Shown: positions 41,121 to 52,947, counted from the first letter of the stretch. The stretch is DNA of 64,000 nucleotides from an uncultured bacterium (GCA_963702025.1 OY969699.1:416001-480000); one strand, 5' to 3'. A program made the numbers and translations. The notes: generated from the letters alone by a model not told the origin.

Positions 41121-41822
41121 CTATTCTCCAGACAGTGCTAACTTTAATAGGAAAATAGTATCAGCTAGTAAACTGGCTTTAACCCAAACTTTTTGTTTCT
41201 CATTTAAAAGTTCACCAATTCCTGAAAGGATGCTCCGATTATTCATATTTTCTAACTCTTTGATTACTAATCGCAGAAATTCTTTATATGTCATATTGGT
41301 TCTTTCTTGAATAATTTTCTTATTGATTGGCCAGTTATTGCGCAAGAAAAACCAAACGTCAAAAATATCACGATTTGCCTTGCCGATTCTTTCATGCATG
41401 GCGACCATTTTATGAGCTGCCATATCTTCTTGTACCATAACTTTCATAGGTATCCCAAGATATTGTTTTAATTCGTATCGGGATCCAAAATTGCGTTTAT
41501 TGATTTCTACTTTTATATTTTGTGCTCCGGTAGTCTTATTCGCATAAGAGAGAAGGAAAAAAAGACTGTATCGTTTTTTTTGTGCTTCCTTAACTTTTCC
41601 ATAATGTTCTAAAATTTCTTTGATGCGATTAAAAATATAATCTTCTTTATTTAAATCTAAAAGATCAAAATCTAAATCAACAGATAAACGTGTTAAACCA
41701 TATAAGAGAAACACTGCTGTTCCCCCCTTAAAACCAAGAAATGGACCTATGGTTGGATCAGTAAAAATATCTTTGAGTATTTGAATTAGAATATTAGTAT
41801 GTTGTCTTGTATCGATCGTCAT
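41121..41822 (-). CDS. abiEii: AbiEii family nucleotidyltransferase toxin (type IV TA)
   Basis: FKGGTA...YGL.R.S.DLDF, IKVEI, K..A...R...RD.FD. Confidence 0.92.
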   Translation of the reverse strand: MTIDTRQHTNILIQILKDIFTDPTIGPFLGFKGGTAVFLLYGLTRLSVDLDFDLLDLNKEDYIFNRIKEILEHYGKVKEAQKKRYSLFFLLSYANKTTGAQNIKVEINKRNFGSRYELKQYLGIPMKVMVQEDMAAHKMVAMHERIGKANRDIFDVWFFLRNNWPINKKIIQERTNMTYKEFLRLVIKELENMNNRSILSGIGELLNEKQKVWVKASLLADTIFLLKLALSGE

Positions 41823-41835
41823 AACTCCCCCAATT

Positions 41836-42417
41836 TTATAATTGTTTTTTTCTTGATTTTTCTAATTGCTTAACTACTTTTTCCATTCGTTTATTTTTAT
41901 AGATTTTTAGAATTTCATAAATCTTATTCCAATTAAGCCCGGAAAGATTATCAAAGTGGTAATTTTTATTTAAATAGAGAGTATCTAAAAAAGCGCGTTC
42001 AGGACAAGCAATGCTGTATTGTTCTTTTATTTCAATTCCCATTGCATTCATCAGAGTTTCATTTTTAATTTTTCTGAATGTATAAGTTTTTCCATCGCAA
42101 ACAATATTTTTTGACTGATATGACGCAACAAAAATTTGTGTGTAGTATTGAAAAATAATTCCTGCGGATGCGAGTACCGTTTCAAAACTAATGTAGGATG
42201 GGCTCATTATTTTTGTAGCCAATTCAAGTGGGTCATAATTTTTATCTTTAGCATATAATCCGCGACGAATTCTATAAAGATCGCCTTTTTTTACATAGTA
42301 ATTAACGCGAGATTTAATATTTTTCGTCTCAATTGCAGGCCAAAGCAAGGAAAGTTCTTTAAATGAATAAACAGTTTTATCCGATCGTAATAGATCTTTT
42401 AAAAAGCTTTGAGCCAT
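41836..42417 (-). CDS. abiEi: AbiEi family antitoxin
   Basis: L.RIRRGLY, PSYIS.ETVL...G.I.Q, A.PERAFLD.LY. Confidence 0.9.
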   Translation of the reverse strand: MAQSFLKDLLRSDKTVYSFKELSLLWPAIETKNIKSRVNYYVKKGDLYRIRRGLYAKDKNYDPLELATKIMSPSYISFETVLASAGIIFQYYTQIFVASYQSKNIVCDGKTYTFRKIKNETLMNAMGIEIKEQYSIACPERAFLDTLYLNKNYHFDNLSGLNWNKIYEILKIYKNKRMEKVVKQLEKSRKKQL

Positions 42418-45406: not shown

Positions 45407-45434
45407 CTCTGTAGCCTATGGTATCGCATTTTCC

Positions 45435-45520
45435 CCGTTCGCTTAGAGCGAAGCGTTAGCCGAGTCGAGAAGTTTTTTTATACCTCTCAAATCGAGCTTC
45501 GCTCACCTTCGAGAAGGATG
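45435..45520. repeat. Degenerate family A palindromic element upstream of ftsY
   Basis: CCGTTCGCTTAGAGCGAAGCGTTAGCCGAGTCGAGAAG...CGAGCTTCGCTC. Confidence 0.6.
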
Positions 45521-45615: not shown

Positions 45616-47026
45616 TTATGAAATTAAACAAGTTTCTTTTTGTGGCGGTTTTGGTGAGAATCGTTCTTGCAGAATCTCCTGAATGCGGGTATTTTGCGAA
45701 GCTTTGAGTACTTTGAGTAAATCTTTATTCAATGGTTCATTATTGGTTTGTTGCTTTTGCAATGTAATAAGAGCCAGCAGTTCATCAGGATTACTATGAT
45801 TATGTAATGCTTTATGGGTAACATGTTTATAAATATAAATTTCAAATGAATAAGTGCCAGGAGAAACAAAATAAAGTGCTTTATGAGTAGTAATGCCTCT
45901 AAAATACTTTTTATGGTTTTGGGCTAGATGTTCAAGTGCATCTCTTGAACATGAAAGTTTATTATTCGTACGCAGATAAAAATAAGTCTCGCCATCAGAG
46001 CATAGTGCTTGGGAATAATTTAAAATTTTATAGGTATTGGTATTGGTATCAATGACCATTGATTTACTTACTGGTTTTTGTCCTACTCGTTGATGGCTTA
46101 AATCAACATGAATCAGGCGGGGGTTTTCATTTCCTTCATCTAAATAAAGGGCGGGTGTTATTGAATTTACAAAGCTATTGTAATATGAAGTATTATAATG
46201 CAATGGCCCTGATCGTATAATGATTTCATCGTATGGCGGCGTGCAAAGAGCCCTTACCGGTGAGTTTTTTTGGTCGTAATATTTATTAAAATCAGCTGAA
46301 CTTGCAGGAATAGTAATAATTTTTTTAGGAATTTCTATAGCAAATTCACAATCGGCATTAGTGATAGTTTTGCTTAAAAATAAATGATGTATCGGTAACT
46401 CTGCTTAAATGCCCCAGATGATAATGGCCCCCTTCATGAAGCTTTATATATTCTTTTGTTTCTAAATCCAAGAGAAATACTTTTTGGGTAACCTGATGTA
46501 AAGGAGAGCGCACTAAAACATACCGCTTGCAAGGAAGTTCTTCGCAGAATAAAATATCACGAGCATCATTTTCCGGTTCATCTACCAGAGTTAGTCGGTC
46601 CGTTTCTAAATCTAAAAAGCGAATTTTGCGCTCGAAATAACTCATCATAACCAGATAATTTTTAAAGAGCTCAAGCTGAGGCATTATATCCAGGTTACTA
46701 CATACTTTTTTGGCTTCAGAGTTATTTATTTCTTCAAGTAATGGTGCTTCATTGTTAAAAATAAAATGATGGAAATGTGCTTGAATATCTTCCGGAAGAG
46801 CTTTTATTTTTTTAATAAGAGCAACCAGATCGGTAGCCCTGGTTTCTTTTGAGGTAAATTGGGCGATAATATTTTTGATTGCGATATCCATTAAGCTCGC
46901 TATGGTTGCCGGTTTATCTTTATCTTCTTGAGTAAGCTGAATTACTTTTGGCTCTGGCATCTCCATTGCCGTTGCCGCAAGTGGGCATAAGCAGGCGAGT
47001 AAAATGAGTGTTCTTAATAATTTCAT
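45616..47026 (-). pseudogene. Secreted BC-box-like/propeller-like protein with CaaX (CLIS), frameshifted at an A5 run (46376-46380)
   Basis: Removing one base gives an open frame SFILSKTITNADCEF... into the 45616..46203 ORF; both halves align with paralogs 47043 and 48371. Confidence 0.8.
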
Positions 47027-47042
47027 AATTCCTCCATTTTGG

Positions 47043-48353
47043 TTATGTGATCACGCACCTTTGTTTTTTATCGGTCTCTTCATTTTCATTAATCTCTTTT
47101 TGAATGGTGACGGACCCCTTGGCGGTCATAACCACTTCAGGCTCCTTTGAGAAGCATTCTTTAACAATTTCTTGAATACGCTCATTTTTTGAGTTTTTGA
47201 GTGTTTTAAAGAGATGTCGATTTAATACTTCATTATTGTTTTTTTGTTTTTGCAAGATAATAAGCGCAAGAAGTTCTTGGAGATTACTATTTTTTGTCAG
47301 TGCTTTATGGGTAATATATTTATATACATCTCCTTTTTTATCGATCATAAATAGATAGGTATCATCTATGAGTAAAGCAGGGTTAGCTTTCTCGGGAATT
47401 TTAATCTCTAGATCAAATGGCATAGATATACATTTGATTTCTTGAGAATTTAATTGCGGAATAGATAAGCAGCTAAGCTTTTTTTTGATAAAATAAAAAC
47501 CATGCGCTGCATCTGAAGTTATTACTGGTTGTTGCTTAATGATTGTATATGTTTGTGTCTGAGTATCAATAACTATCAAAAAATCAAATAAATCGGATTC
47601 TAGGTTTGGAATAACTATATTGGTGGTATTAAGACCAATTAGTATTTGTTGAGTAAGTTGATATTTTCTAGTGCAAGTAACTTGTATTAAATGTGGGTTA
47701 GGTTTATCTGCATCTAAATAGCGTACCGAGCATGAAAATTGTTGCGGGTCAATAGCGTCGTATGAAGTATCAAAAATAATTTCGGGTTCATTTACTTTTT
47801 TGACTGTGACACGAATAGCGCCATCTACTATACCCACTTCAATTTTTGTATTTTTATTAACTTCTGTTGGTGTTTCAAGCTTAACAGAATCAGGAAGCGT
47901 GATGGTGAGATTTTCAACGTTCCCGGTATCTCTATTTAATGCTTGCAAGATTATATTTCCATTTGATGCAGCAATTAAATTTTCTATGTGATAATTTCCA
48001 TTACTCAGTCTTGCGATATATTGAGGATCAAAATTATTAATCTCTTCAAGTATTAATGTTTCATGTTTAAATAAATAGACATACAAATAATCGACCAGAT
48101 CTTGCGGAATTTTGTTAATTTTTTCATAGAGCGCAATAAGCTCTTTTGTTGTGCATTGTTTTTCTTTAAATTTTTTAAATAAATTGTTGCACACAATATC
48201 TATTAATGGAGAAACTTTAGGAGTTTCTATCGTATTAGATGATTGCATAAGTGGTATATAGATTGGTTTATCATTGTTCGCCGGTATCTCCATTGCGGTT
48301 GCCGCAACCGGGCATAGGCCGGCGAGTAAAGTTACTATTCTTAATAATTTCAT
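47043..48353 (-). CDS. Secreted paralog with BC-box-like motif, shared C-terminal domain and CaaX (CVIT)
   Basis: ATA-MEIP; VSPLIDIVCNNL..IPQDL; THKAL...ELLALI..QK; ends RCVIT. Confidence 0.78.
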   Translation of the reverse strand: MKLLRIVTLLAGLCPVAATAMEIPANNDKPIYIPLMQSSNTIETPKVSPLIDIVCNNLFKKFKEKQCTTKELIALYEKINKIPQDLVDYLYVYLFKHETLILEEINNFDPQYIARLSNGNYHIENLIAASNGNIILQALNRDTGNVENLTITLPDSVKLETPTEVNKNTKIEVGIVDGAIRVTVKKVNEPEIIFDTSYDAIDPQQFSCSVRYLDADKPNPHLIQVTCTRKYQLTQQILIGLNTTNIVIPNLESDLFDFLIVIDTQTQTYTIIKQQPVITSDAAHGFYFIKKKLSCLSIPQLNSQEIKCISMPFDLEIKIPEKANPALLIDDTYLFMIDKKGDVYKYITHKALTKNSNLQELLALIILQKQKNNNEVLNRHLFKTLKNSKNERIQEIVKECFSKEPEVVMTAKGSVTIQKEINENEETDKKQRCVIT

Positions 48354-48370: not shown

Positions 48371-50089
48371 TCATGATATCGGACAACCGAAAAGACTTTG
48401 CGATTCTTCGTTAATTTCTTCTATTTCTTCTTCATTTTCTACGTTCTGATTATGAACGAGTAATGATGCAACTGATTCCTGTGGTTGCAGCGGCGCGTAG
48501 CGTTCTTTTAGTATTTCTTTTATGCGATAATTTTTAGAGCAATTGAGTATGTTCCAAACATACGGATCAAGTTTTTTATGATTAATGTGCTCTTTTTGAG
48601 CGATAATCAATGCGAGTAGCTCTTCGATAGTAGAATCTTTTAACAGTGTTTTATGCGTAGCATACTTATAGAGGCATGTACCATCTATAAAAAATACATT
48701 TTCTCCATTGGGTGAGAGCCCCATCGGTTTTTGTGCAAATGTACTAAATGATCCGATATGTGATGTTATTGTTTGAGATTGCTTGTCCTGGGTTGTGCCA
48801 TGAAGATAATCATGGCATGCCAACTTTTTGCCATAGCGAGTAAATCCTAACAATGTGTCAGCCGTGATACAGATTTCATCGCAGTTGTTGACTGGTATGA
48901 AGGCGCAGGTGTCTTGATGAATAAATGCATTAGTGGAAATGGCAATCCAGTTTTGTATGTTTTTTAAAGACATAAAGTGTTTTGTTTTGAGCTGTGCACG
49001 TTTGATAGAAGAAGGATCAATATATACAGTTTTTGTTATGTTACCTTTTTTAAATGAAAAGGAAACAGATTTATCAGTATTTTCTTTAAAAGACGTTTTA
49101 TGTAAAAAATTGTTATTTTTATGAAGGCTTTCAGCAAGTCGAGTTAAACTTTCTTGTATGGAAGTATTCCGATCTATAGTAGTAATCGTTTTGGTGAGTT
49201 TTTCCTGATCCACAAAATACATATCCATTTCTTCTGCGTCCGGCTTATTAGCGTAGAAATTATTATCAAGTGCTATAGTAGTTACTTGGACGGTAGTATT
49301 AGGAAGTATTGTTTTGATGCACAAAGAGTGGCCATCTTTGGTAAAATATGCCTCTTGATAGGGTTCTTCTTGTTGCCAGAATAGACACTTTCTTTTAGTT
49401 TCCAGATCAATGATGTATAAGGAAGCTTTTACTGCTTCCGTCTGAGAATTTTTTTTACAAAAAAGAGCAATGTATCGCTTATTTGGTAACAAAATAGCCT
49501 CACAGGGGTAACCGGTAGTAGTTTTTCCTTCGGTTATGCTGTTATCTGCATAGTTTATGATGGCAAACTTACCCAAACCGCCATATATAGTGGCAGTATT
49601 GAAGAAGATTGATATATGGCTATCATCCAAAACATAAATCGCAGAATACTGATGCGTATGAGTTACAAGTTTATCGGTTAACAACAGTGGTTGTGAATCA
49701 TTTATCGATTCTAAAAGTTCAGCATGATATTTGAGCAGATATGCACACAAAGAATCTTTTATATCATGGGGCAAAAGCTTAATGTTATTGAGTAATGCAA
49801 TAAGTTTTTTGTTGCTCGCTGCATCAGATTTGAATTGATCAAGTAATTGTTGGCATGCTATTTCTTTTAAACTGCGCATTCCCGGTTCAAATGGTTTGGC
49901 ATGAATAACATCAGCCGGATCTTTTGGTATTGGCTCGGGCATTTCCATTGCGGTTGCCGCAAGTGGGCATAAGCAGGCGAGTAATGCTAATATGAGTCCC
50001 GTTCGCTTGCCAGCCTTCGTTAATGGTATCTCTCGACTCGCTTGCGCTCGCTCGAGATGAACGGCTGATAATATTCTTAATAATTTCAT
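48371..50089 (-). CDS. Secreted paralog with BC-box-like motif, propeller-like core and CaaX-like end (CPIS); palindromic element inserted in signal peptide
   Basis: MRSLKEIACQQL..LPHDIK; THKTL...ELLALI..QK; ends GCPIS. Confidence 0.78.
   Translation of the reverse strand: MKLLRILSAVHLERAQASREIPLTKAGKRTGLILALLACLCPLAATAMEMPEPIPKDPADVIHAKPFEPGMRSLKEIACQQLLDQFKSDAASNKKLIALLNNIKLLPHDIKDSLCAYLLKYHAELLESINDSQPLLLTDKLVTHTHQYSAIYVLDDSHISIFFNTATIYGGLGKFAIINYADNSITEGKTTTGYPCEAILLPNKRYIALFCKKNSQTEAVKASLYIIDLETKRKCLFWQQEEPYQEAYFTKDGHSLCIKTILPNTTVQVTTIALDNNFYANKPDAEEMDMYFVDQEKLTKTITTIDRNTSIQESLTRLAESLHKNNNFLHKTSFKENTDKSVSFSFKKGNITKTVYIDPSSIKRAQLKTKHFMSLKNIQNWIAISTNAFIHQDTCAFIPVNNCDEICITADTLLGFTRYGKKLACHDYLHGTTQDKQSQTITSHIGSFSTFAQKPMGLSPNGENVFFIDGTCLYKYATHKTLLKDSTIEELLALIIAQKEHINHKKLDPYVWNILNCSKNYRIKEILKERYAPLQPQESVASLLVHNQNVENEEEIEEINEESQSLFGCPIS
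49994..50068. mobile_element. 75-bp family A palindromic element inserted in frame, with TAATAT direct repeats
   Basis: CCGTTC...GAACGG inverted ends; TAATAT at 49988-49993 and 50069-50074; net 81 nt = 27 codons absent from paralogs. Confidence 0.85.
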
Positions 50090-50107
50090 AATTTCCTCCA
50101 TTATCTT

Positions 50108-50611
50108 TTAACTATTTTTCTTGATTTCGCGAAGCGGGATGCTCAGATGTACTGCGTGAAGCTTTTTGCCGCCGATGCGATAAGTATTTTCTTTTGTTGA
50201 AATCGGCAGATTAGGATCAAATTTTTGAATGAACCGTTTGTAGGATTCAAGTAAGTCATGCTGCGAGATGCCATCATCGGTTGGCACAACTTCCCATTCA
50301 ACAAGATTACCTTCGTGAGTTTTTATATCTTCTAAGCATTTCTTGAATAATAAAAAACCGGTCCCTTTTTTGCGATATTGTTTTTGAACATAAAATGAAT
50401 CGATTGTCCAGTTTGTGGGTAACATACAATTTTGACTATAGCAAATACTGCCTACTTCAGCATGAGCAGCGCGCGCAGAAATAACATAATTATCCCATAG
50501 TTTATCATAGACTGGGCTTGATATGATCACCGGATCGGTTTGAGCCGCTTTTTCCATTGCCAATGTTTGGAGTGCAAGAGTGCCGACAATGAAAAATAAT
50601 AAATGTTTCAT
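50108..50611 (-). CDS. Secreted GNAT family acetyltransferase
   Basis: TLA-MEK; IDSFYVQKQYRKKGTG acetyl-CoA motif A. Confidence 0.8.
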   Translation of the reverse strand: MKHLLFFIVGTLALQTLAMEKAAQTDPVIISSPVYDKLWDNYVISARAAHAEVGSICYSQNCMLPTNWTIDSFYVQKQYRKKGTGFLLFKKCLEDIKTHEGNLVEWEVVPTDDGISQHDLLESYKRFIQKFDPNLPISTKENTYRIGGKKLHAVHLSIPLREIKKNS

Positions 50612-51807
50612 TATTCTGCTCCCTTATTATTTTTAGACCTTTTTGCTATCTCTTGATCTTCAAGAGCAGGATTATCTTTTCGTTTAGCGCTATTATCCGT
50701 TGGAGTGTTTATTTTATCGTCACAACATGTTGCCATATGTTCTTCGAGTGCTTCCTTTGTTTGATGTACTTTACTGCAATTGCGGCATTGTAAGTGTATC
50801 AATTTATGCTCATACAGGGTTCTCTGAGTGGAGAGAACCTTGCCGCATTCATCACAAGTTCTTTCAGATTGAGATGGATTTTTGTCAGGGTTATGTTTGT
50901 TTAATGTGTGGTTATTTAAGATCCACTTGTCGGTAAATCTAAGTATACACTCCTCACATTTATACGGTTTAGCCTCCTGGACTGGCAGGTCATATTTTTC
51001 ATAATGTTCACCACGAATATGCGATATTAAATATGTGTTTGAAAACTGTAGATGACACCATTTGCATATTTTAGTATTTTTTGCGTCATCTTTAATTTGT
51101 TGCAGCTTATTTTCAACCATCTCTGGCTTTTGGGTTCTTCCCGAATTGTTATTTTCCTCAGACGCTATTTTGAGTTTATTGGAATTATAAAAAAGTGTTT
51201 CATCGCTATCTAAGTCATCTGAATCGATTCTTTCCTCAGATGCTCTGGGTTGGGCTAATTTTAAATTTTGTGGTGTTTTTTTCCGAGAGACTTCAGCATT
51301 TTCAAGCGAATTAATATAGAGCGTGGTGTTATTATCATCGGATGTTGATTCATCGTTACCGTGTGCCCTTTTCATATGCCGCGTTAGACCGTATCGTCTT
51401 GCAAAAGTTTTGGTACAATGCTCACATGGTAACTTTTCGGTATGATTTTTTTTGTGTTGATTAAGTTCCCATTGGGTACAAAATCGCAAAGTGCATTCAT
51501 CGCAGGCAAAAGCGAGTGCCTCTTCTTGCGTAAGTCCAATTTCTTCATAATGCTTCTTTAAAACATGGTTTTTTAAATAGTCATTCTTGCTAACTTCTGT
51601 TCCGCACCATTTGCATATATTGGTACCTTTGGTGTCTTCTTCAATCTTTTTTAATGCTTCATTGTGAGCCTTGATTTGGGTTGTCCTTGTGCATGCTGCA
51701 ACAAGTGCGGCAATCGTTTCTGGTCGTTTTTCCATTGCTCCAAGTGGGAAAAAGCCAAATAAACTAAAACAACTGATTAACAAAGTTTGGTCAATAGTTG
51801 AATTCAT
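50611..51807 (-). CDS. Secreted multi-C2H2 zinc-finger protein (about 7 fingers)
   Basis: LGA-MEK; CKWC, CDEC, CEHC, CKWC, CEEC, CDEC, CRNC fingers; HTEKLP linker; C-terminal KRK...KRSK. Confidence 0.9.
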   Translation of the reverse strand: MNSTIDQTLLISCFSLFGFFPLGAMEKRPETIAALVAACTRTTQIKAHNEALKKIEEDTKGTNICKWCGTEVSKNDYLKNHVLKKHYEEIGLTQEEALAFACDECTLRFCTQWELNQHKKNHTEKLPCEHCTKTFARRYGLTRHMKRAHGNDESTSDDNNTTLYINSLENAEVSRKKTPQNLKLAQPRASEERIDSDDLDSDETLFYNSNKLKIASEENNNSGRTQKPEMVENKLQQIKDDAKNTKICKWCHLQFSNTYLISHIRGEHYEKYDLPVQEAKPYKCEECILRFTDKWILNNHTLNKHNPDKNPSQSERTCDECGKVLSTQRTLYEHKLIHLQCRNCSKVHQTKEALEEHMATCCDDKINTPTDNSAKRKDNPALEDQEIAKRSKNNKGAE

Positions 51808-51847
51808 ATAATTCTCCATTTTTTTACTTATTACTTTTTACTTCTAC

Positions 51848-52882
51848 TTAATTGTGCAATGGTATAGTTGCTGCAGTGCCAACACCAACTAATGCTGAAA
51901 CATTTGCAGAATGCTTGCGGTTATGAGCGATAAGGGCCGCTAAACCGCCCAATGCCAATGAGCCTCTTTCTATCCATGCTGATTCATTCTGTGCTTGCAG
52001 TTGATTTATCAAGCCGTTGATTGTGTTTCGATCTGAAATTTGTTGGTTGGCTAGATTTCTCATTGAAAGTTCATGATTATTTAATGCTTGTCTTGTACTG
52101 CTTTTATAAGCTAACAATCCGTTTGCTGCTTCTTGCATTTCTTGCTTGGTTGCAAATTTTTTCTCTGTCGCATTTATTTGATTAAGAAGCTCTTGTTCCC
52201 GTTGGGCCGCCAATTGAGCGTGGCATTGCAATTCATTAAACCGTTGTGCCAGTTGTTCATACGATTCTTTGAACATGGTAACGTTTTCTTGCGGGGCTTC
52301 GGTTTTAGCAGCCGTTGGCTTTGAGCTAAATACCCAACTTAAAAAACCGCCCTTATTATCTGCGGGAGCTTCCGTTTTACGTTGATTACAAAGAAGGCAT
52401 GATTGCAAGGTTTTATTGTTTGCAAAACATTTTTCATGAACCGCATGATTGCATTTATAAATATGTGGTTTGGTGCCATCATCAACCGGTTGTGCACAGA
52501 CAATGCATAACTCTTTTGCCACATTAATCGCACTATGCGGTTTAGGTTGTGGGGCACTTTGATTGCCGGCTTCAAGATCTGGTTCAGTGGATTCTTGTTG
52601 ATCCGGATAGTGGACCGTTTGATAAATAATGGTAGGAAATTCTTCCGGGTTTTCTTTACCCGTTTCAATGTCCTTGTTTTCGCGAAGAATGGCTTTGCAG
52701 TCTCGGCATCTATTTGCTCTGAAAGATAAAAGTGAAAAGGTTAAAGAATTTGAGTTAGGCTTTTCTTGCCCACAGGTGCCGCATATATTTTGGGAAGGCA
52801 TTTCCATGGCTGCTACTTGAGCAGGGATTGCAAGAGCGCCTACAATACCAATTGAAGAAAGAAATAAAACGCGTGATAACAT
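51848..52882 (-). CDS. Secreted RING-H2 finger protein with coiled coil and C-terminal hydrophobic segment
   Basis: VAA-MEMP; CIVC-x14-CNHAVHEKC-x9-CLLC. Confidence 0.8.
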   Translation of the reverse strand: MLSRVLFLSSIGIVGALAIPAQVAAMEMPSQNICGTCGQEKPNSNSLTFSLLSFRANRCRDCKAILRENKDIETGKENPEEFPTIIYQTVHYPDQQESTEPDLEAGNQSAPQPKPHSAINVAKELCIVCAQPVDDGTKPHIYKCNHAVHEKCFANNKTLQSCLLCNQRKTEAPADNKGGFLSWVFSSKPTAAKTEAPQENVTMFKESYEQLAQRFNELQCHAQLAAQREQELLNQINATEKKFATKQEMQEAANGLLAYKSSTRQALNNHELSMRNLANQQISDRNTINGLINQLQAQNESAWIERGSLALGGLAALIAHNRKHSANVSALVGVGTAATIPLHN

Positions 52883-52947
52883 AATAAACTCCATTATCTA
52901 AGGGGGGTATAAAAATATCTATTAGTACTAATTCTACCTAAAAATAG

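Follow-up and report, generated by a model that had tools for sequence, protein, structure and literature searches.

How does a bacterial gene for an exported protein come to hold 27 extra codons within its signal peptide, and do these codons matter to the gene? The question is raised by a locus in a stretch of 64,000 nucleotides (the window; positions are counted from its first letter) from a genome of 1.6 Mb with 39% G+C (G000). For this locus, the initial annotation described a palindromic element inserted in frame into the leader of an effector gene.

Filled and empty alleles of the host gene

The best named full-length match to a genus marker is L151, which is labelled Ca. Dependentiae; we infer that the lineage is probably Babeliae (Dependentiae, TM6) and that the bacterium is probably a parasite of protists. 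In a cultured member of the Dependentiae/Babeliae lineage, 44% of the proteins carry signal peptides, according to the available text of that study (PMC6561590). In G000, a heuristic search identified 233 leaders of the AME type with a median length of 19 residues and a 95th percentile of 25. The host gene (Table 1) encodes a member of an AME-leader family with 18 members, and its product is a predicted exported protein with a probable degenerate beta-propeller. The protein forms a single-member cluster.

Table 1. Features of the host locus in window coordinates
Feature	Position	Strand	Basis
Host gene, 572 aa from the likely start	48371..50089	-	ORF; P0001 in protein-collection search
Shine-Dalgarno GGAGG, 5 nt 5' of the ATG at 50089	50095..50099	-	sequence
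6-bp direct repeat, first copy, host codons 6-7	50069..50074	.	sequence
75-bp mosaic insert; with one repeat copy, 27 extra codons	49994..50068	.	absent in orthologue and paralogues
Module A: CCGTTC foot, 5-bp arm, GA bulge, inner hairpin, TCGA, complementary arm	50028..50064	-	
One arm of module B (repeat type beside clade-2 GIY-YIG genes)	50010..50024	+	
Second foot (49999-50005) with 5-base outer flank	49994..50009	+	common to G000 159987 and 1175462
6-bp direct repeat, second copy, Ile-Leu at the start of the h-region	49988..49993	.	sequence
Intact h- and c-regions, Sec-type leader, Ala-Thr-Ala then Met-Glu	49949..49993	-	
S-L-K-x-x-A/C-x-x-x-L motif and L-P-x-x-hydrophobic motif	49748..49873	-	family alignment
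Paralogue, leader empty	47043..48353	-	ORF, alignment
Paralogue, leader empty, N-terminal half only	46358..47026	-	ORF, alignment

A protein search returned a single orthologue (P0002), whose syntenic DNA is the metagenome contig L054, with approximately 87% nucleotide identity in the neighbouring blocks. On the plus strand, TAATAT is present at 49988-49993 and again at 50069-50074, i.e. at a spacing of 81 nt with 75 nt in between, and L054 and both paralogues have exactly 81 nt less at this site. Thus, the 27 extra codons, which had been noted from the paralogues, hold up: the gene sequence is as described, the 81 nt have no counterpart in the paralogues or in L054, and alignment with the syntenic orthologue yields the empty allele. 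The Shine-Dalgarno sequence (GGAGG throughout the alignment), the start codon and the first five codons are conserved in the orthologue and both paralogues, and the host protein is alone among the 13 aligned family members in having a repeat-like extension. Because the orthologue and the paralogues are empty and the other aligned members have no extension, the insertion is real and lineage-specific.

The empty allele is represented by few sequences. A full-protein orthologue search in 20 relatives gave one distant match only, and neither the first metagenome scan nor the scan of genome contigs gave an orthologue. L054 and L055 are identical, and near-identical contigs in X1 and X2 stop short of the insert site. 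The X6 contig, which skips a net 81 nt, was set aside as an independent empty allele: its block boundaries are the same as those of L054 and it is probably from the same organism. The filled junction is spanned by no independent contig, as would be the case if the 81 nt were an artefact of assembly; alternatively, they could be non-coding if the true start were downstream. We consider both highly improbable, because the genome has no identical twin of the 75-mer from which a mis-join could arise, the insert contains no in-frame ATG, GTG or TTG, and the Shine-Dalgarno sequence and MKLLR are conserved upstream of it in four homologues. The ATG at 50089 is the likely start, giving a leader of 47 residues.

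The mature protein has no family match in Pfam or NCBIfam. The structure model has a mean pLDDT of 49.6 and weak propeller matches (query TM-score 0.09-0.17) and, because the model is poor, we claim nothing beyond "propeller-like". The motif pair downstream of the leader, in which L74 is invariant among the 13 aligned members, is one that we take to resemble a BC box plus a cullin box; it is conserved across the AME-leader propeller family, whose members are possible mimics of host E3-ligase adaptors. Atlas leads for the host protein are SOCS-box clusters at 0.81-0.82, under the reliable range, and PF07525 has no match in the protein at E values up to 10. Ankyrin, RING and C2H2 proteins are encoded near the host gene; at window 50611-52894 (minus strand), AME-leader proteins carry C2H2 zinc fingers and a RING finger, i.e. 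eukaryote-like domains. The protein is a candidate effector, a label that is plausible.

The region differs between the two genomes in other respects. G000 and L054 share a module-A element (the repeat type described below), located at window 45407-45480 close upstream of ftsY; the L054 copy is decayed. As this element (window 45435) is the only other one in reach, L054 offers no second empty site. A third paralogue at window 45616-47026 (minus strand) is split into two pieces of 222 and 195 aa. L054 lacks the middle paralogue, and in it the counterpart of this N-terminus is joined to an ankyrin-like domain. The split, the fusion and the loss suggest that leader-plus-box modules undergo shuffling. 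Separately, approximately 1.1 kb at window ~41230-42320, comprising parts of two genes that by reading resemble an AbiEi/AbiEii-type pair, is deleted in L054.

The insert, its repeat family and the flanking repeats

The initial annotation took the insert to be a 75-bp palindromic element with CCGTTC/GAACGG ends. The length is correct for the DNA between the two TAATAT copies; the span from CCGTTC to GAACGG, however, is 66 bp (49999-50064), with 5 and 4 additional bases outside. The 5-base outer end is part of the element because it is found again in two other copies. Nor is the insert one palindrome. Rather, each end is the 6-bp foot of a separate module, the two modules facing in opposite directions, and the whole is a mosaic of one bulged hairpin (module A), half of module B and a second CCGTTC foot. 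Folding is weak: relative to shuffles, the 87 nt comprising the element have a z-score of -1.25 as RNA and 0.06 as DNA, and the element or the hairpin alone has -1.0 to -1.4 as RNA. Three longer composites share the head of the insert. Given that there is no identical 75-mer, the insert may have been put together or shortened at its present site. An Rfam search returned nothing credible for five loci, and the inserted peptide (a 29-aa stretch) has no match at E 0.01 in NCBIfam, which includes models of the Rickettsia palindromic elements (RPE).

Module A is a dispersed repeat. A strict pattern finds 107 copies in the genome vs 2 in the control, with ten types of co-varying stem pairs among them, and module A of the insert is a compensatory stem variant of this family with its closest kin at G000 385262 and 1042949. 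The repeat is present in 8 of 8 genomes of the genus and in 29 of 61 genomes of the order, across which the copy number ranges from 0 to 107. Among 122 clusters, 102 are intergenic, 13 are inside ORFs of at least 150 aa and seven overlap an ORF end, a distribution that fits expectation if most coding hits are purged. The genome also contains, in several copies, long structured repeats of high G+C content that have no relation to module A (G000:C1:480311-480740, 482083-482548, 1216133-1216549 and 1224779-1224927).

Copies are nonetheless found in frame in conserved genes. In a search of coding sequences across the genome, inserts were identified in uvrC (+71 aa; orthologues empty in 5/5), argS (+31 aa; empty in 4/4 usable orthologues), mnmE (two sites, the first with +39-40 aa and empty in all three orthologues that cover it) and tkt (confirmed by orthologues), and orthologue comparison adds holB-like and pgeF genes. 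A grpE-like gene, named by reading, has an in-frame insert as well; no empty orthologue of it was seen. At the mnmE loop and the tkt linker, relatives carry different inserts at the same places. The copies are read in differing frames and on differing strands. The proposal of RPE-like in-frame insertion in another lineage is thus borne out by the empty orthologue, the 107 copies, the in-frame copies in housekeeping genes and the bias towards leaders described below. The coding tally leaves out matches in secF and in an rpsC-like gene, which were false positives of a relaxed pattern, as well as elements that lie 5' of the true start or that fall in a frame on the wrong strand. In uvrC (G000:C1:384641-386122, minus strand), the 71-residue insert is nested and its final hairpin arm overlaps conserved host codons, as if the target gave the arm.

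Did the 6-bp direct repeat arise by duplication of the target? With the insertion length taken as fixed, a junction identity of at least 6 nt has a chance probability of 0.002-0.004. At the empty site of the orthologue, three of the six duplicated bases match, though the upstream alignment is identical at 94 of 96 positions; the paralogues match at 5/6 and 3/6. A duplication of fixed length across the family was tested twice and is unsupported: flank matches of at least 6 nt occur at 25 of the 122 clusters vs 11.6% of control pairs, and at 26 in-frame sites such matches are present at in-frame periods in 5/26 vs 4/52 off-frame (Wilcoxon p 0.18). Most repeat sites are without a flanking duplication. 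Elsewhere, repeats at in-frame periods bound the inserts of a BatC-like leader (6 bp) and of the G006 prepilin leader (11 bp). At G000:C1:490180-490830, a GIY-YIG cassette is bracketed by two ~50-bp copies of the upstream gene's 3' end (typA/bipA-like, by reading), which suggests a long duplication at insertion. The repeats are likely to reflect either a variable duplication or a microhomology used for priming.

Leaders as targets and the predicted effect on export

Leaders account for seven of the approximately 30 in-frame sites in G000 and G006 (three leader and eight internal sites in G000; four leader and ~15 mature-region sites in G006), in a tally made by hand that required an orthologue and in which several internal G006 sites have uncertain length differences. 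The underlying two-way comparison covered 165 clusters in G000 and 129 in G006, with three further G006 leaders added. With leaders taken as 1.8-3.1% of the coding residues, the bias has a P of 7.5e-7 to 3e-5; P is 0.026 if 10% of residues are permissive. Leaders are over-represented in this tally. The same leaders are hit repeatedly. A GspI-like prepilin leader (G000:C1:228350-228985, minus strand; L067, L068, L073 and L069) is empty in G001, G002 and G004 and holds four different inserts in G000, G005, G006 and G007, i.e. in 4/7 genomes with the leader in view, and a second pseudopilin leader is filled in G001. Of seven genomes, five have an empty BatC-like signal peptide, and the other two, G000 and G007, have inserts there that differ from each other. 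In all leader cases, the insert precedes the h-region or the prepilin cleavage motif.

Some further loci were considered. The leader of a BatD-like gene (by reading) in G006 (L135:6210-6478) has more than 90 repeat-encoded residues ahead of the h-region. A leader-like case at G000 1126926 was removed from the tally, as it has no orthologue in seven genomes of the genus; the orphan ORF there (G000:C1:1126233-1127039, minus strand) has an N-terminus of nested repeat modules followed by a hydrophobic stretch. A scan with the prepilin alignment gave no new leader insertion; among its 80 loci, mostly generic prepilin matches, L151 was examined and is empty.

It had been suggested that the insert is tolerated because the leader is cleaved off. 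Part of this stands, in that leaders are over-represented. Cleavage is, however, not needed for tolerance, because in-frame copies sit in mnmE, uvrC, argS and tkt, and ~23 of the ~30 sites are in mature regions. Sparing of the working core is the better account, because leader inserts fall between the start and the h-region or cleavage motif. The host gene follows this pattern. Sec signals are ordered into a positive n-region, an h-region and a c-region with small residues at -1/-3 (PMC9360617, in the available text). By inspection, which is also how the cleavage site was placed, the lengthened leader has seven Lys/Arg, two acidic residues, a hydrophobic peak and Ala-x-Ala. The insert ends in Lys-Arg-Thr-Gly-Leu directly N-terminal to the h-region and, as the h-region is whole and has Lys-Arg ahead of it, the n-h-c order is kept. 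The peak 9-residue hydropathy of the leader is 3.29 vs 2.87 in the orthologue. Stops are present in four of the insert's six frames (approximate for the rotated frames), and the frame in use is open.

The initial annotation also raised possible tuning of translation or export by the mRNA hairpin. In this reading, the insert would have been co-opted, acting on translation initiation or export by its hairpin or by extending the n-region. The insert lies 22-96 nt past the start and can reach a fold energy of -21.7 kcal/mol, the leader grows from 20 residues in the orthologue to 47, far over the 95th percentile of AME-type leaders, and leaders are targeted beyond their share of coding DNA. All the same, we regard such tuning as quite improbable. 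The fold is within the range of shuffles, the hairpin begins 26 nt past the ATG, and the predicted accessibility of the Shine-Dalgarno sequence and the ATG is not reduced (0.76/0.64 in the filled vs 0.67/0.52 in the empty orthologous allele). Moreover, the insert is present in one genome only, and equivalent leaders in relatives hold different inserts of other lengths, a pattern better explained by tolerance than by a conserved device. Regardless of function, such inserts extend the leader, here to 47 residues and in one G006 gene beyond 100, and can thereby mask signal peptides and shift start calls.

As a second alternative, the insert might do mild damage to expression or export; drift in an intracellular bacterium of small population size would account for its persistence, and the gene family would be decaying. 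The insert adds the two acidic residues and parts MKLLR from the h-region, a neighbouring paralogue is in two pieces, long indels separate the host protein from its orthologue, the structure model is of low confidence, and an RPE in the guanylate kinase of Rickettsia is described as neutral or slightly detrimental in the available text of PMC2229807. Against this, the 572-codon frame is open and the h- and c-regions are intact. The dN/dS of the host gene vs its orthologue is 0.36 over 465 codons and 0.26 in the C-terminal 113 codons, compared with 0.32 for the adjacent acetyltransferase and 0.06 for ftsY; these values for the host gene are the mean over both branches and mostly older than the insertion, so they speak for constraint on the gene and not specifically for constraint after the insertion. 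We consider mild damage unlikely.

GIY-YIG nucleases, a proposed mechanism and known systems

What could have moved the repeat? The genome has eight GIY-YIG matches, including uvrC, and five relatives have 25. In a tree of 17 small GIY-YIG proteins from the motif search, with broken or unmatched copies left out, the proteins split into clade 1 (n=10) and clade 2 (n=7). An inward-pointing A foot is present upstream of 10/10 clade-1 genes and on both sides of 9/10, and no B seed is present; clade-2 genes have A feet in 0/7 and B seeds in 7/7. Two full cassettes have 422-429 bp, and deleted cassettes of 127-191 bp are found at several places. The feet-outward arrangement of the insert is that of the nuclease cassette, with a match of 6-7 bp only. 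In G000, a clade-1 gene is located at 1201845-1202132 and clade-2 genes at 1019370, 1567658 and 1568458, and many copies of module B are at the ends of tRNA genes.

The only solved relatives of the clade-1 proteins are UPF0213 proteins. Clade-1 proteins are 32-33% identical to the single NTS-linked nuclease recovered (80 viral loci), which falls on the same side of the deepest split as clade 1, on a long branch. SsnA cleaves single-stranded DNA at a position that precedes an oriented hairpin by a few bases (PMC11893778, in the available text), and the 4-5 extra bases outside each foot of the insert fit this cut position. The pairing of repeats and nucleases is one of gene neighbourhood, from which we infer a nicking role for the clade-1 protein. 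We tentatively propose, as a possible though doubtful generalization, that small UPF0213-like GIY-YIG nucleases serve as mobilisers that need no transposase: each clade would read its own single-stranded hairpin, nick 4-5 bases outside the foot and copy mosaics with variable duplications, and in this lineage would repeatedly rebuild the n-regions of export signals. If true, the filled/empty pair described here is the footprint of a GIY-YIG mobiliser reaction.

For the mobilisation step alone, the family might instead spread free of a dedicated nuclease, through template switching at hairpins or through repair there that is primed by microhomology, with the 6-bp repeat as the priming microhomology. 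The flanking repeats range from none to 6, 11 and ~50 bp, the 3' arm of the uvrC hairpin coincides with host codons, the elements are nested mosaics, and two of the repeat bases also precede the related copy at G000 159987. These observations are matched by others that are less easily accommodated: each repeat type is strictly paired with its own GIY-YIG clade, feet inward on both sides, and the conserved unpaired foot, the bulges and the freely co-varying stems suggest recognition by a protein. We therefore hold a nuclease-free route to be rather unlikely.

Taken together, we favor a model that we regard as probable, in which the insert is a neutral, RPE-like passenger: a mosaic that was copied in, was kept as it spared frame and signal core and brought no stop, and is lost with the leader. 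The model builds on the direct observation of the filled/empty pair, the repeat family, the in-frame copies in enzyme genes and leaders, and the pairing with GIY-YIG genes. In this model, a small non-autonomous mosaic of two hairpin-repeat types would have entered a gene for an exported protein once, between its codons 5 and 8, at some time after this lineage and the L054 relative diverged. The clade-1 GIY-YIG protein would nick single-stranded DNA beside the feet and thereby drive copying, and the 6-bp repeat would have arisen at insertion. The insertion would then have passed three filters: the added length of 75 + 6 is divisible by three, no stop interrupts the frame in use, and the position in the n-region leaves the Shine-Dalgarno sequence, start, h-region and cleavage site untouched, with Lys-Arg placed immediately ahead of the h-region. 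The 47-residue leader would still be exported and cleaved. The 27 added residues are most likely removed with it and functionless in themselves, and most likely the insertion as such serves no function either.

RPE are stem-loops of 105-146 bp with terminal inverted repeats of ~12 bp that are present in frame in Rickettsia genes (Ogata et al. 2000, via the available text of PMC2229807 and PMC10969869). The repeat described here resembles them in being a dispersed palindromic repeat that is in frame in conserved genes of an intracellular bacterium and apparently neutral. It differs in the size of the insert (75 bp, with a terminal match of 6 bp), in that the copies have no conserved peptide, in phylum, and in that cleaved leaders are targeted recurrently. 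With Ssn/SRM, for which mobility of the NTS-ssnA-NTS unit is a hypothesis (Chenal et al. 2025, PMC11893778), the system shares a ~95-aa single-domain GIY-YIG gene between inverted oriented hairpins, an unpaired 5' foot and many dispersed copies. However, the foot here is CCGTTC/CCGCTC, the stem is bulged and the SRM consensus does not apply (two matches in the 1.6-Mb genome, neither a module-A copy), and in-frame coding copies are not covered in the available text of PMC11893778.

The CGTC/GTAG REPs are closer in distribution. As described in the available text of Di Nocera et al. 2013 (PMC3733652), they occur as singles, dimers and clusters, are mainly intergenic and target the same gene in different species, as here; some are in frame and add 20-30 residues, often in genes for repair proteins or tRNA synthetases; and that study found no dedicated mobiliser for CGTC repeats. 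By contrast with their CGTC/TGTC/CCTC tag, stem of 8-9 bp and loop of 4-5 nt, the repeat here has no CGTC/GTAG tag, a CCG(T/C)TC foot, a 5-bp outer stem, bulges and a variable inner hairpin. The same text suspects most N-terminal REP cases to be misannotated starts. Because the start and the Shine-Dalgarno sequence are conserved upstream of the insert, this is ruled out for the host gene, which makes the case unusually clean. The YPAL/RU-2 elements of Yersinia (PMC2229807, in the available text) are similar in being GC-rich, with internal inverted repeats, variable duplications (3-26 bp for YPAL) and a signal-peptide fusion; unlike the repeat here, they are of 168 bp and of a single type and supply the hydrophobic part of the signal, whereas the host h-region is retained here. 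As in MITEs, terminal inverted repeats are held in common with an autonomous element, i.e. the nuclease cassette, at a match of 6-7 bp only. A literature search, with subscription journals largely outside it, gave no account of the module-A repeat in Dependentiae/Babeliae or of in-frame repeat inserts concentrated in cleaved leaders; related motifs or N-terminal cases may be tabulated in the supplementary data of PMC11893778 and PMC3733652.

The insert is most likely an RPE-like passenger, and in-frame palindromic inserts as a kind are already known. The genus offers filled and empty alleles, two repeat types with their own nuclease clades, deleted cassettes and recurrently targeted leaders, and with this material the mobility hypothesis is directly testable. 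If the role proposed for the GIY-YIG nucleases is true, it would explain the movement of RPE- and CGTC-type repeats in a testable way.
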